From positions 2,912,001 to 2,976,000 of the forward strand of contig OY968796.1 of NCBI GenBank assembly GCA_963695545.1: a stretch of DNA of 64,000 nucleotides, given 5' to 3'. Positions 16,250-63,810 of this stretch are shown here, one piece after another. The notes beneath the pieces were generated by a model, which worked only from the letters and a program-made list of their open reading frames with translations, did no database searches and was not told where the DNA came from. Positions within the stretch are counted from its first letter, which is position 1, and each line of letters begins with the position of its first letter. The translations under genes were made by a program, and so were the position numbers. The stretch is from Terriglobia bacterium (GTDB taxonomy: Bacteria; Acidobacteriota; Terriglobia; Acidiferrales; UBA7541).

Positions 16250-17576
16250 CTAGACGCGGACCTCGGAAAACGATTTGTCGAGCAGTCGAATGGCTTCGTC
16301 GACGTCGGCCTTGGCGATATTGAGCATGGGCGCGAGGCGAATCACGTTGCCGTAGAGGCCGCCCTTGCCGATCAAGAGGCCGTTGTCGCGCGCGCGCTCG
16401 AGCAGCTGCGTTTGTGGCTTCGGGCGCGGGCTCTTTGGTTTGGCGGTCTTTTACGAGTTCGATGCCTTGCATCAGCCCCATTCCGCGCACGTCGCCGATC
16501 ACGCGCATGCTTTTCCTTCAGCTCGTCGAGTTTTCCGCGGAAATAGTCGCCGACGACATCGGCGTTATCGAGCAGATTTTCTTCTTCGATCACTTCGATG
16601 GTGGCGCGCGCCGCAACCGACGTGACCGGATTGCCGCCGAAGGTGGAAATCGTCGAGGCCCTGGAAGGCGTCAGCGATTTCGGGCGTCGTGATGGTTGCG
16701 CCGATCGGCGTGCCGTTGGCCATGCCTTTGGCGCAAGTGATGATGTCCGGCGTGACTTCCCAGTGCTCGATGCCGAACCAGTTTTTCCGGTGCGGCCGAA
16801 GCCGGTTTGCACTTCGTCGGAGATGAACAGGCCGCCGTATTTTTTCACGATCTGAAAAACAATCTTGAAATATTCCGGCGGAGGAGTGATGAATCCGCCG
16901 ACGCCCTGAATGGGCTCGGCGATGAAGGCGGCGATCTGGCCGCTGGTGCCGGTTTGGATCAGATTTTCAACGTCATTGGCGCAAGCTACGCCGCAATCGG
17001 GATATTTCATGCCCAGCGGGCAGCGATAGCAATAAGGATTGATGGCGTGCGAGACGCCGACGCTGATGATTCCGGTCCGCGGCGATAGGGCGCGACGGCG
17101 GTCATCGATTTCGTGAGCGACGATCCGCCGGAATACGCGTGGCGCAGACCGACGACATCGTAGCGGCCGGTGGCCATGCGCGCGAGTGAGAATGGCCATT
17201 TCGTTGGCTTCGCTGCCGGAATTGGTGAAGAAAGTTTTTTCGCAGGCGGCCGGGCGTGATCTGCGCCATTTTTTCGGCCAGATCGACGATGGCCTCGTTG
17301 GGATAGAGCGTGGAGAGATGCTGCAGGCGATCGACCTGCGCTTTGATTTTCCCGGTGACCTTGGGATTGGTGTGTCCGACGGAGATGGTGAGGATGCCGC
17401 CGAAGAAATCGAGATATTTCTTGCCCTCGACGTCCCAAACGTATTGCATCGAGGCGCGGTCGGCTACGAGCGGCTGCTTGTAATAATTCGACGACCGCGG
17501 GCCAGACGTATTCTTTGTATTTGGCGACGACTTCTTCGCTACGTGTGGCTGACCGTCTTGGTCTTCAGTCGCTCAT
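16250..17576 (-). pseudogene. Class-III aminotransferase (beta-alanine/AGXT2-like), broken by several frameshifts (assembly error or pseudogene)
   Basis: Fragments in different frames: KYLDFFGGILTISVGH, AEPIQGVGG, DEVQTGFGRTG, TFGGNP, VRGMGLMQG. Confidence 0.85.
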
Positions 17577-17602
17577 GAAGCTCCCCTGAAATCGTTTTGC
17601 AA

Positions 17603-18508
17603 CTAATCTGCTGCTTGCGCCGAGCCGGCCGCGAGCGTGCGCGTGATTTCGCCGTAAGATTCCGGACGGCGATCGCGGAAGAATTGCCAGACGCGGCGCA
17701 CTTCTTCGATTTCGTCGAGATTCGAGTTCGGCGGCGAGCAGTTCGTCTTTGTTGCGGCTGGCTTGCGCCACGATTTTTCCGCGCGGACTGCAGAAATAGC
17801 TCTTGCCGTAAAATTCGCCGATCTTCCACGGTGCTTCGATGCCCACGCGATTGATGGCCGCGACAAAATATCTGATTGGCCACGGCATGAGCCGGCTGCT
17901 CGAGTTCCCACAAATATTCGGAAAGCCCGGCGACGGTGGCCGATGGGTTATAGACGATTTCCGCGCCGTTCAGGCCGAGGCATGCGCGCGCCTTCGGGGA
18001 AGTGACGGTCGTAACAGATATAGACGCCGACTTTGGCGAAACGCGTTTGGAAAACGGGATAGCCGGCGTTGCCGGGCGTGAAATAAAATTTCTCCCAAAA
18101 ACCGGGATGGCAGTGCGGGATGTGGTGCTTGCGATATTTTCCGAGATATTTTCCGTCGACGTCAATCACCGCGGCGGTGTTGTAATAGACGCCGGGCATT
18201 TCGACTTCGTAGATCGGGACGACCAGGACCATTTCGTGTTTCTTCGCGAGTTTTTGCATGCGCGCGATGGTTGGGCCGTCGGGAACGGGCTCGGTCAAGT
18301 CGTACCAGCGCGTTTGCTGCTCGGCGCAGAAATAAGGGCCGTAAAAGAGCTCCTGCAAACCGAGGACTTGCACTTTCTTCTTGGCCGCTTGCGCGATGAG
18401 ATCCTCGTGCTTCGCGATCATCCGCTTCTTGATTTCGTCGAGCGAATATTTTTCCGGCGACCACTCGCACGACGCCTGGATCAAGCCGCAGCGGACCATT
18501 CGAGACAT
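17603..18508 (-). pseudogene. Nitrilase-family beta-ureidopropionase, frameshifted in its 3' half
   Basis: LQELFYGPYF, YRKHHIP, EKFYF.PG, ICYDRHFPE; the continuation GLNGAEIVYNPSAT...WELEQPAHAVAN and FFRDRRPE lie in other frames. Confidence 0.85.
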
Positions 18509-18651
18509 CGCGCACCTCCGGTGCTGTAAGGGCAGTTTACCGCTGGCGGGCGCGTGGGAACAAGGCGCGCGCCGCGCTTGTGAGAACTCTATGATTGCAG
18601 GGGACTTCGGAATTTCGGGGCGGCGGGCGGCTAACGACAGACGGAAACGTG

Positions 18652-18984
18652 TATATATACCCCCGGTATGTTTTTGCGAACTTGCTGAAAACGCGGCGGT
18701 TGCAGGGAAAGAGTGCGGATGAGTGTGAAAACAAATGGGGTTAAAACGTCTATTTTTCAGCATGTTGCGCACTCTTTTGTAATTGACTGAAAACAAATGG
18801 GGTTGTGTAGGGGCTTTGGTCGTCACAGGAACGAAATCGAGACGGCGAGGGCGCAGGTCGAGGGAGCGCGCGGGACGCAAATCCAGAGTGGGCTGCGTGG
18901 ACAGTTCGAAATGGGGAAGCGCGAACATTCAAAATGATAACATTTGTGCACGCTAGTGTCAACTACTATATGAGTATTCGAAAC
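18652..18984 (-). repeat. Dispersed promoter-bearing element, copy C1
   Basis: TTCGAATA box; TTGACA(18962-18957)-N17-TATCAT(18939-18934); ATG 18928; AAGAGTGCG/CGCACTCTT stem; ends AAAACATACCGGGGGTATATA. Confidence 0.85.
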
Positions 18985-19198
18985 AAATCTCGCACGCACG
19001 GAGAGAGCGGATAAGGGGCGCCAGGCCGCGCCCTTCCCCGGGGCATCTGGAGGATAGGCTAATCGCGGCGCGACCCGGCGGCCGAGATTCCTAAACAAAA
19101 TATAAAAATCCGACCGGCGATTTTGAGGCTAAGGTACAGCGCGCGCCGAGATGTCTTTCGGTTGCGCGGCCCGGGTCGTATATAATCTCGCCGCGCTC

Positions 19199-34511: not shown

Positions 34512-35594
34512 TTACTTTTCCCCGCCGCTCTCCTCACCGATCGCCTCGCCGGAGCTCGCCGTGTTGAATAGAAATTTCTCCTGCGTCACTTGATTGCTCG
34601 CGTCCACGTCAATCTCCGCGAACACGTTCCGCTCCGCGCGCGGCCCCGTATCGAATCGCAGATCGCGCAGCATCACGCGATGCCCATCACCCAGACCCTC
34701 GACGCGCGCCAAAGGGAACCGCGCGAATTTCAGGAACGCCGCGCCCACATCGCTCTGCTGTGCCGCTTCGAGCGCCGGCGATGCCTCCGCCTTATAGAAC
34801 ACCCGCGCTGATTCCGGATCGAAGGTCGCGCCCGCCGCGAACGACACATCGACCTCGTCGATCGTGTCGTCGGTATCGACTACGCCCGACCACGCGAGCG
34901 GCGACGCCGATTGCGGAAATGCCTCAGCCGTGTTGGCCGCTTCGCCGTGATACTCGCGCGCCGCAATCATCGCCGTTGCGCGCTTCTGCAGAATCAGCCG
35001 CCCGCTGCAGAACGCCGCGACCAGCGCCAGCGCCACCACCGCGCCCCGATCGACCGACTTCCGCTTCGACTTCGCGCCAATTTCCTCCGTGATCATCCGG
35101 AATAACGCGGGCACCAAAAGTCCCGCCAGCAGCAGAAACAGAATCCACGGATCAAGCGATGCCGTCAGATCCCACGCGAACCATCGCGCGCTAAAGGGCC
35201 ACAGCAATTTCACCCCGTAGCTATTCGTCAGATCGAGCAGCACATGCAACCCGCCGCCCGCCAGCGCCGCAAAAAACGCCGGCGCGAACCGCAAGGAATT
35301 TGTAGGGGCGGAGCTTGCCTCCGCCCGGTTTTGCCCCACGGGCTTGCCAAGTCGCCGCCCGATCACAACGAACGTCGCCGCGATCAGCGCGGCCAGAACC
35401 ACGATGCCCACCAGCGAATCCGTCGCCGTGCGATGCGCTTCCAGAAACATCCGCGCGCCGCCGAACACCGATAGCCAATCGAGCTCCGGCGCGAGCCCCG
35501 CCGTCACGATTATCGGCAGCGCCAGCGGCGTCACGCGCTTAAACCCGCAACGCGCGAGCGCCACCGAAGCCAGCACCTGCGTAATCGGTTCCAT
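34512..35594 (-). CDS. Inner-membrane metal-dependent hydrolase (YdjM-like)
   Basis: MEPITQ start, P.LD, HR.AT.S, H..LD..NSYG..LLWPFS motifs. Confidence 0.8.
   Translation of the reverse strand: MEPITQVLASVALARCGFKRVTPLALPIIVTAGLAPELDWLSVFGGARMFLEAHRTATDSLVGIVVLAALIAATFVVIGRRLGKPVGQNRAEASSAPTNSLRFAPAFFAALAGGGLHVLLDLTNSYGVKLLWPFSARWFAWDLTASLDPWILFLLLAGLLVPALFRMITEEIGAKSKRKSVDRGAVVALALVAAFCSGRLILQKRATAMIAAREYHGEAANTAEAFPQSASPLAWSGVVDTDDTIDEVDVSFAAGATFDPESARVFYKAEASPALEAAQQSDVGAAFLKFARFPLARVEGLGDGHRVMLRDLRFDTGPRAERNVFAEIDVDASNQVTQEKFLFNTASSGEAIGEESGGEK
35302..35326 (+). repeat. GTAG-type REP palindrome inside a coding sequence
   Basis: GTAG immediately followed by GGGCGGAG-CTTGC-CTCCGCCC. Confidence 0.65.
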
Positions 35595-35659: not shown

Positions 35660-38169
<2,510 letters not shown>

Positions 38170-43162: not shown

Positions 43163-43709
43163 GGCGGGCAGGCCGGGCGATCGCTGGGTTGGTTTCTTAG
43201 CAATAGGGAACTGGCCGGGAGGAAAGTCCGGACACCGTGGACTCGGGCCGCAAGGTCCGAACCTAAGGGCAACGCGCCTGGTAACGCCAGGGCGCCGGGC
43301 CGCAGAAATCGGGCGCGCAATGCGCGCCTGGGCGGAACGGCGACGGACAGTGCCACAGAAAATAAACCGCCGGTGCGGCGTTTCGGTGACGGCCGGGAGG
43401 AAAAACCTCTCGGAGGTCGCTATCAAAAATAGACGACGCGCATGGTAAGGGTGAAACGGTGGGGTAAGAGCCCACCGCGTCTCGAGAGATCGAGACGGCA
43501 CGGAAAACCCCGCGTGGTGCAAGGCCAAATAGGAGGGGAGGGCCGGCCCGGCCCGCAAGCGACGCATTCTTCGGAATGCGACGCCGTGACCCTCGGGTAG
43601 GCTGCTGGAGCCCGCGTGCGAATGCGGGCCTAGAGGAATGATTGCCACGGCGTGCGATTCTTTAGGGGATCGCGCGCCGCACAAAATCCGGCTTACAGGC
43701 CTGTCCGCC
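43163..43709 (+). ncRNA. rnpB: RNase P RNA (type A, extended)
   Basis: GAGGAAAGTCCGG and ACAAAATCCGGCTTA (P4 strands), AGTGCCACAGAAA, GGGTGAAACGG, GGTAAGAGC; P1 ends GGCGGGCAGGCC/GGCCTGTCCGCC; TATAAT at 43151. Confidence 0.97.
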
Positions 43710-43814
43710 ATCTTCTTTCGCCTCGGTTGAGGTTTGCTCCCGCGCGTTTCTTTTGTCCCCGATGTGTGCCGGCTGCGGGCGAAATCTTGCTTGCGAAACT
43801 CCATTTTGCTGGGG

Positions 43815-44267
43815 AGGGGGGTACACCCCCGGGTATGTTTTGCGTAAGAGCGGCAAACACAGGACTTGCAGGAAAAGAGTGACGAAGAGTGCGCAAGAGA
43901 TTGAAAACAGTCGGTTTGCGGACGTTTATTTTCAACGAGATGCGCACTCTTTTGCAGTCGACTGAACAGCAATGGCTTAGAGCTGCGGATATATACGCGT
44001 GAGTGCACTTTGATCGAATTGTATCGATGAAATTTGGTAGGGGGAGTAGGGCGAGAGGAAGCAAGCCTGCCTGAAGGTTGGCAGGCTTCGCCCACAGGCG
44101 CGGAAAATTCGCGAGCGCCGGAAGCGAGCCAGGCGCGGCAAGTTGGCGATGTGGCCTGCGGCGAGGGTACGCGTTTGCAGTTCATACCGAACGGTAGCAC
44201 AGCCATAGCGTACGTGTCAATAATAACATGTGGGTTATTCGAAAAGTCTGTGGAAATTCATTCGAAA
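43815..44267 (-). repeat. Dispersed promoter-bearing element, copy C3
   Basis: Two TTCGAA boxes; TTGACA(44220-44215)-N18-TACCGT; ATG 44185; collinear with C4 over its whole length. Confidence 0.85.
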
Positions 44268-63384: not shown

Positions 63385-63810
63385 TTTCGAATGAATTTCC
63401 ACAGCCTATTCGAATAACCCACAAGTAATCGTTGACTGCTAGTTTGCAAGTCTGCTATCATTCAGCATGAGTTGCAAACGCCCGCCCTCGCCCCTGTCAG
63501 GGTCCCGGCCCATTCCTCGGGCGTCGGGGTTTCCGCATGCAGGAGCCGGAGCCTGCCTGCCGGCAGGCAGGCTTGTCTCCGCCCGCTTTTCCATCCCTGC
63601 CAAACATGATCGATACAATCCAATCGAGCCGCACTTATCTGCGCAAAAGTGCCCCTCCAACCCTTTTATTTTCAGCGGATTGCAAAAGAGTGCGTATCTC
63701 GTTGAAAATAATCGCGATCAAGTGGCTTTATCTTCACACTCATCCGCACTCTTTCGCCGCATCCACTTTATTTTCAATATTTTAACAAAAACATACCGGG
63801 GGTATATATA
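63385..63810 (+). repeat. Dispersed promoter-bearing element, copy C4
   Basis: Two TTCGAA boxes; TTGACT(63432)-N18-TATCAT(63456); ATG 63467; ends AAAACATACCGGGGGTATATA. Confidence 0.85.

Follow-up and report, generated by a model that had tools for sequence, protein, structure and literature searches.

What is the short, promoter-bearing element that recurs in unrelated intergenic regions of an Acidiferrales chromosome, and what might keep it there? The question is raised by a 64,000-nt stretch, referred to here as the window (G000:C1:2912001-2976000), of genome G000 (4.16 Mb, 60.6% GC, 93.8% complete), assigned to Candidatus Acidiferrales by its named homologues, in which a first-pass annotation had described four related blocks, C1-C4, and read them as a mobile, non-autonomous unit or a multicopy RNA carrying its own promoter. 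Judged from sequence, the blocks belong to a widespread and undescribed cassette family with a specific link to a putatively domesticated phage packaging cluster. Our literature search, which covered main texts and mostly freely available papers, found no description of either the cassette or the head-tail cluster, and the available part of a comparative paper on Acidobacteria mentions prophages, not this system (PMC5900883). Four points go beyond the first-pass annotation: a frame that runs stop-free from the start codon, a zinc-finger gene in complete copies, regular spacing, and the link to the phage packaging cluster.

Results

Cassette copies in the window

Re-reading of the sequence located all four blocks (Table 1), with their parts in the order originally described, namely TTCGAA box, TTGAC, -10 hexamer, ATG or GTG 5 nt further on, C-rich middle, AT-rich boxes and G-run end motif. 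Copies C1 and C2 are not assembly artefacts, since short-read contigs from four soil runs reproduce both letter for letter; no clean joint skipping C1 or C2 was found in short-read contigs. Compared with such contigs, the window carries six single-base insertions at 17550-17983, and given these, assembly errors likely account for the frameshifts in the gene that follows C1. The flanks of C1 lie 570/589 bp apart in G000 and 23/44 bp apart in G003/G004, and by this comparison the inserted unit exceeds the 333-bp block noted at first; C1 is missing at the orthologous site in four relatives. The C2 site is empty in G001, G002 and G005, and holds another insert in G004 and a cassette of a different subfamily in G003. 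Within the gene before C2, a 33-bp stretch (35300-35332) matches dozens of places in five relatives, and is probably a common signal-peptide-coding or repeat motif.

Upstream of C3, the flank shared by the subfamily, which contains a REP-like hairpin, continues for about 110 nt past the block edge at 44267. The C3 ORF comprises a variable middle with an inserted CCTGCC hairpin, the inverted pair AAAGAGTGCG...CACTCTTT, AT-rich boxes and the G-run end motif, the predicted packaging-start region under the explanation developed in the Discussion. The hairpin (CCTGCC...GGCAGG) had been counted as part of the element; it is present inside C3, but is a separate repeat that occurs alone in other genomes. 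The open frame of C3 runs antisense across the RNase P gene, whose identity as the neighbour was confirmed by an Rfam search (43165-43711, +). This was the sole Rfam match in the window; the cassette itself matched neither Rfam nor Pfam above the cut-off.

Table 1. Cassette features in the window (numbered from its first nucleotide; individual elements by the positions given with them)
Copy	Feature	Position	Strand	Description	Basis
C1	Whole inserted unit	18570..19140	-	about 545 bp, ends approximate; type A, without zinc-finger gene	flank matches and alignment
C1	TTCGAA box (18982), -35 (18962), -10 (18939)	18934..18982	-		
C1	Leaderless leader ORF	18652..18928	-	ATG 18928, repeat boxes, G-run end motif 18667; in frame into next gene, ATG 18508	
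C2	TTCGAA box (35662), -35 (35682), -10 (35705)	35662..35710	+		
C2	Leader ORF	35716..35925	+	GTG 35716, end motif 35908; in frame with the gene downstream as far as 38169	
C3	Two TTCGAA boxes (second 44243), -35 (44220), -10 (44196)	44191..44267	-		
C3	Leader ORF	43815..44185	-	ATG 44185, G-run end motif 43834; frame open to 41651	
C4	Two TTCGAA boxes (second 63409), -35 (63432), -10 (63456)	63385..63461	+		
C4	Leader ORF	63467..63810	+	ATG 63467, end motif 63795; open past window end	

Census and anatomy of the cassette family

Described as a four-copy element, the cassette has about 112 copies in the genome. BLASTN of C1-C4 against G000 yielded 102 clusters, and a promoter profile built from 70 seeds yielded 107 matches at E<1. 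Profiles of the 3' part gave 16 extra matches, 5 of which were kept to reach the total of 112; the 11 dropped were reverse-strand matches (8, from an internal inverted repeat), distal ends of copies that an insertion sequence has interrupted (2) and a weak match (1). The common anatomy is a TTCGAA box, a sigma70-type promoter predicted from sequence, and a leaderless start codon. A strict pattern of these three parts matched 73 times in G000, and its reversed form not once; matches occurred in 29 of the 121 genomes of the order (maximum 73; controls 0-1) and at most once per genome in 250 further genomes of the phylum. The cassette family lies far beyond chance.

Among the 101 copies with a located end, 84 are of type A and 17 of type B, the 3' part of the latter consisting of two to four AGAATCA units with a longer run of G. 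Cassettes are 0.3-0.9 kb long and mostly without a gene, and no pair of copies exceeds about 87% identity over the full length. The two ends are unlike each other and vary between subfamilies; no complementary ends (terminal inverted repeats) were seen in the copy alignments, and the empty sites are too diverged for a target duplication to be read. Complete copies contain a zinc-finger gene and no transposase match at the cut-off, and a cognate DDE transposase linked to cassettes was not found. A search of the cassettes for the PICI hallmarks (integrase, replication module, single att site) found none. In some subfamilies the 5' flank begins in REP-like hairpins of several types, which differ by subfamily, and REP-like hairpins also occur as inserts; the unit is not made of two inverted REPs, as a REPIN would be. 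Several RAYT-type Y1 transposases, at G000:C1:1198899, 1476279, 1479300 and 1474854, are flanked by REP hairpins of their own, and some are truncated or frameshifted.

Control of the TTCGAA boxes by LexA (SOS) was considered and rejected: their spacing is unlike the lexA ATTC-N7-ATTC, and TTCGAA boxes are absent before lexA and recA. The ATTC-N7-ATTC direct repeat before lexA (G000:C1:2228480-2228500) is a candidate SOS box of the lineage. Retro-mobility (retron, group II intron, DGR) was likewise set aside, as no RVT_1 match was found in the 93.8% complete G000 and copying extends to sequence lying upstream of the predicted start.

Some type-B cassettes have a separate history. Those at G000:C1:247988 (-) and 343397 (+) are both split at the same CTTAAAG position by an insertion sequence of about 3 kb, which encodes a zinc-ribbon transposase and which we take to be IS1595-like, their distal ends lying at 245237 and 346842. 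Two others, at G000:C1:136889 (+) and 4065883 (-), stand before large genes that are paralogous and carry a twin-arginine-like signal; cassettes and genes were probably duplicated together.

Translatability of the leader

Start and end were both located in 83 of the 107 matches, and in 73 of these 83 copies the frame of the start codon is stop-free to the end motif, as compared with 8 and 9 for the other sense frames and, in a random-frame null over 100000 draws, a mean of 30 and a maximum of 49, the copies being related to each other. In G003/G004 (40 loci fetched), 21 of the 22 copies with a located start have an open leader, the other frames giving 0 and 1. The frame stays open 60 nt past the end motif in 71 of 82 copies (other frames 58 and 53). 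A conserved leader peptide was rejected, since the same central DNA motif is read in two frames, in 27 and 17 copies; the third frame, which holds a stop, is never used. The C3 peptide has 2 hypothetical relatives besides itself and no Pfam match. Hence, translatability is under selection while the peptide is not conserved, and because selection acts in this way, a structured non-coding RNA is not favoured. The leader consists of 33% C and 18% G, and C-rich, G-poor RNA is the make-up of a Rho loading site; we therefore infer that transcription depends on ribosomes to get through it. In these genomes the cassettes also account for many hypothetical proteins that look spurious and for falsely extended N termini.

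Spacing and turnover of cassette sites

Cassettes in G000 lie on average 37.1 kb apart with a coefficient of variation (CV) of 0.57, against 0.98 expected, and the minimum among 20000 draws over the intergenic gaps of our own gene calls was 0.72. Gaps below 10 kb number 7, against 26 expected. Four REP-like control families are not regular (CV 1.0-1.4). In G031 the regularity is weakly repeated, with no gap below 15 kb against 4.0 expected (p 0.011) and a CV that is not significant.

Cassette sites are polymorphic between species. Syntenic flanks were available for 26 of the 40 cassette loci of G003/G004, and the matching G000 interval was filled in 20 and empty in 6, a count in which some intervals are several kb wide and two sites are matched twice. 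All nine testable syntenic pairs share their orientation. The 3' part of the syntenic partner is seldom the closest relative, ranking 1, 3, 13, 18, 22, 30, 62, 78 and 82 among the G000 type-A copies, and one syntenic pair joins type A with type B. Where the pattern matched, one spacer is 10 nt long in 35/35 G000 copies and 11 nt in 11/11 G003 copies. Sites persist while their content is overwritten, and copies are homogenised within each genome. The mobile, non-autonomous, promoter-carrying unit proposed earlier is supported by the many copies and by orthologous loci, where filled and empty sites were both found. At G000:C1:757200-757440 the G003 and G004 cassettes stand in opposite orientation, and G000 keeps only a box remnant.

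A zinc-finger gene coupled to complete cassettes

Four G000 cassettes are directly followed by a gene that occurs nowhere else in this genome (4/4 copies), encoding a protein of 139-170 aa with a CCCH zinc knuckle and a helical hairpin, both present in the structure model (pLDDT 66). The family is large (2173 clusters at 50% identity) and present in 16 of 31 relatives. Of 80 homologue loci retrieved, 69 reached far enough upstream to be assessed, and 45 of these carry the promoter and leaderless start, 33 of the 45 with a TTCGAA box. The leader frame reaches the zinc-finger gene in 40 of the 45 (other frames 3 and 13), with an exact ATGA overlap in 17, and 39 of 75 zinc-finger genes end in ATGA, as compared with 10% of G000 genes.

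The protein had no match among PHROGs, PDB sequences or viral contigs, and a fold search gave no specific match and none linking it to TerS, the best Z of 6.3 being ordinary for helices. Its Pfam matches are weak only (zf-primase 7/97, DUF5763 3/97), as are its Atlas links to DUF5681/DUF5763 clusters. A characteristic C-terminal tail, discussed below, is present in 38 of 75 homologues and absent in 37, type-B proteins having acidic tails. In G001, which is 83% complete and has 20 cassette pattern matches, the zinc-finger gene was not found. In family f3 (G026, G023), distant homologues follow other AT-rich repeat leaders that end in a G run, which suggests sister cassette families with other promoters.

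A head-tail cluster and a shared protein tail

The single TerL of G000 (E 4.6e-41) belongs to a cluster that spans 36 kb (C1:3384-3420 kb) and also has matches to a major head protein (1e-6), an endolysin, a virion protein and, weakly, a replication initiator; a 698-aa gene was called portal from its position and size alone. No integrase was found within the cluster, and TerL and capsid had no PDB sequence match. The cluster is syntenic in six relatives, and its capsid is present in 79 of the 121 genomes of the order, nearly always as a single copy and mostly 74-92% identical. In G000 the capsid gene is closely preceded by an insertion sequence, and the TerS-like gene no longer stands in its usual place. 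The region (G000:C1:3384000-3420000) is itself a candidate gene transfer agent (GTA). No cassette was found inside the head-tail cluster.

A 92-aa protein family of the cluster is single-copy in 21 of the 121 genomes; in 19 of these 21 it precedes TerL by at most 1.3 kb, the exceptions being G000 and G003. Small, helical and in the usual TerS position, it is likely small-terminase-like; it has no evident N-terminal DNA-binding domain, and its nearest Atlas clusters at 0.95 are two mainly viral and one mainly bacterial. A tail pattern in the last 50 residues was found in 4 of 3245 predicted G000 proteins, namely the three type-A zinc-finger proteins and the 92-aa protein, a result that shows specificity only, as the pattern was derived from those same proteins. 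The profile-profile match of the two families is confined to the tail (probability 86, E 5e-6), and their helical cores do not align. Moreover, the tail changes alike in both proteins, reading WD(M/I)PGPDRE in G000 and WDIPGPDP in G003, and across the order both families have hydrophobic-D-x-P-x-P-x-R tails. TerS tails recruit TerL.

At least two cassette promoters occur in 16 of the 21 genomes with this TerS type and in 8 of the 100 others, the profile having been built from some of these lineages and kin not being independent. In genus g14 this holds for 11/11 genomes with the capsid and 5/18 without it, again among kin that are not independent. Capsid and TerL were not found in four cassette-bearing genomes that are 94-100% complete (G018, 24 promoters; G321, 20; G341, 17; G328, 4), and the TerL match of G362 has a stop. 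The cassette promoters of G018 are near-identical, suggesting a recent spread without a resident cluster. Conversely, the capsid occurs without a cassette pattern match in genera g9 (30/33), g6 (9/9), g12 (7/7) and g186 (4/6).

Discussion

Copy number, anatomy, open frame, zinc-finger coupling, regular spacing, turnover at fixed sites, conserved cluster and shared tail are observed. Packaging start sites are a likely role for cassettes that number about 112, are evenly spaced, and in three cases precede a gene with a tail matching that of a small-terminase-like protein. We give an even chance to the explanation that they are selfish, pac-like starts of DNA packaging which bring their own terminase adaptor and ride a domesticated GTA-like particle; that they act through the terminase in some way, defence included, we consider fairly probable. 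More tentatively, and with the odds somewhat against it, the Acidiferrales may possess a GTA with outsourced specificity, in which tiny selfish cassettes supply start sites, tiled around the chromosome at about one per headful, together with a DNA-binding small-terminase adaptor, and transcription-translation licenses the cut.

According to this explanation, the promoter would fire once a repressor leaves the TTCGAA/dyad boxes, and leaderless translation would carry RNA polymerase through the C-rich, G-poor leader, where Rho would otherwise stop it, to the G-run motif and, in complete copies, to the coupled gene. The zinc-finger protein would bind the leader boxes and bring TerL, in type A via its tail and in type B, whose protein is without the tail, perhaps via a hetero-oligomer with host TerS. 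Cassette-adjoining DNA would be packaged and would recombine in sister cells, such that cassettes overwrite each other at the same sites, and a new site would pay only away from an existing one, which would lead to about one site per headful. In this way both the cassettes and host genes would pass from cell to cell. How new sites are founded is not accounted for by homologous overwriting. P22-like heads hold about 42 kb, and the nearness of this figure to the 37 kb spacing is only a coincidence of scale. As to which way packaging would run, coverage on neither side of the cassettes, upstream or downstream, exceeded that of strand-shuffled controls.

The same shared tail and spacing could also be read as defence by sabotage of packaging, the tailed zinc-finger protein and decoy sites diverting the terminase of invading related phages onto host DNA and gene transfer being a by-product. 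Such sabotage would fit the cassette-rich genomes without a resident cluster, and satellites that redirect or block terminases are described in the available parts of two papers (PMC6739421, PMC11417361). However, the tail tracks the host's own cluster protein, no zinc-finger homologue was found in viral contigs, so no phage target is indicated, and a passive decoy leaves the open frames of gene-less copies unexplained; we regard defence of this kind as unlikely. Similarly improbable, in our judgement, is a REPIN-like replicator independent of packaging, in which transcription exposes cassette DNA as single strands that are moved by a host HUH transposase (RAYT), and target immunity sets the spacing. 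It draws on six Y1 transposase (Y1_Tnp, RAYT) matches in G000, some of them near cassettes, on the REP-like hairpins in which the shared 5' flanks of subfamilies begin, on the filled and empty sites, and on spread in genomes where TerL was not found. Nevertheless, the RAYTs are flanked by REPs of their own, REP types differ between cassette subfamilies, no leading/lagging strand bias was seen (50 vs 57), and the terminase tail is left unexplained; moreover, REP distances are random above 200 bp in the available part of a P. fluorescens study (PMC3116915), and the REP controls in G000 are not regular.

Regular spacing and the long persistence of sites are also what one would expect of a chromosome organiser, that is, of strong transcription units which, with a binding protein, set host supercoiling or nucleoid domains, and towards convergent genes the frame is open past the end motif in 23/23 cases (other frames 12 and 14). 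We hold this for rather improbable, given that genomes of one family hold anywhere from no copy to more than 70, that the zinc-finger gene occurs in 1-15 scattered copies, that sequence turns over at the sites, and that the terminase tail is shared. Very improbable, finally, are portable promoters kept for driving a downstream host gene by translational coupling or fusion. The downstream gene does lie on the same strand in 77 of 107 cassettes (about 60% expected), 10 fusions and 17 close couplings were found among the 93 copies with a located start, and C1 and C2 share the frame of the adjoining genes; however, 30 of the 107 face a gene end with the frame still open, the host -10 box remains behind the insertion, and regular spacing is not predicted.

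Packaging starts, our preferred reading, would bear on how GTAs choose DNA and why they are kept, matters for which the system offers a candidate adaptor, a mutable tail and some 112 candidate sites that can be named. If specificity is indeed outsourced to the cassettes, no GTA with defined start sites would have been known before, and the cassettes would be the smallest known satellite of a domesticated phage. An undescribed GTA-like cluster is, moreover, indicated in the majority of genomes of a soil order that is abundant. Should the packaging model prove wrong, there is still a repeat family that is selected for translatability and not for its peptide, is regularly spaced and replaced in place, and fits no family found here.

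Comparison with known systems

The head-tail cluster resembles GTAs such as RcGTA of Rhodobacter capsulatus in being conserved, single-copy and without an integrase. Like RcGTA gp1, as described in the accessible text of PMC6854486, it has by TerL a short TerS without an evident N-terminal DNA-binding domain, and the available parts of two sources describe GTAs as having no discrete packaging start sites (PMC6854486, PMC7947584), the first stating that none are known. It differs from known GTAs in its dispersed candidate start sites and separate putative DNA-binding adaptor, and in its weak replication-initiator match.

Among phage satellites, the SaPI TerS redirects packaging. Satellites are further described, in the accessible parts of the literature, as redirecting terminases by PICI Rpp (PMC6739421) and by PLE GpsA/GpsB with pac mimicry (PMC11417361), and the cassettes, as far as these accounts go, would share with them a small element protein predicted to steer the helper terminase towards a site belonging to the element. 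The zinc-finger protein showed no match to Rpp or Gps in sequence or fold. Unlike PICI-type satellites, cassettes are 0.3-0.9 kb long, carry no integrase or replication genes, number about 112 per chromosome and are mostly gene-less, and their helper would be a domesticated cluster.

With REPINs and RAYTs, as portrayed in the available part of the literature (PMC3116915, REPORTH), cassettes share a non-autonomous, extragenic, multicopy population that is homogenised within the genome and leaves filled and empty sites; they differ in being no REP doublet, in having a promoter and a selected ORF, in their regular spacing, and in a partner gene that is not a Y1 transposase. MITEs and Correia-type repeats are likewise short, multicopy, promoter-bearing and intergenic, whereas the cassette ends are unlike each other and subfamily-variable, pairs are at most about 87% identical over the full length, and no linked DDE transposase was found. 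In T3 and T7, whose packaging depends on transcription, a promoter next to the packaging site is needed for packaging to start; unlike these phages, the cassettes would use the host sigma70 polymerase and a translated leader in place of a phage polymerase.
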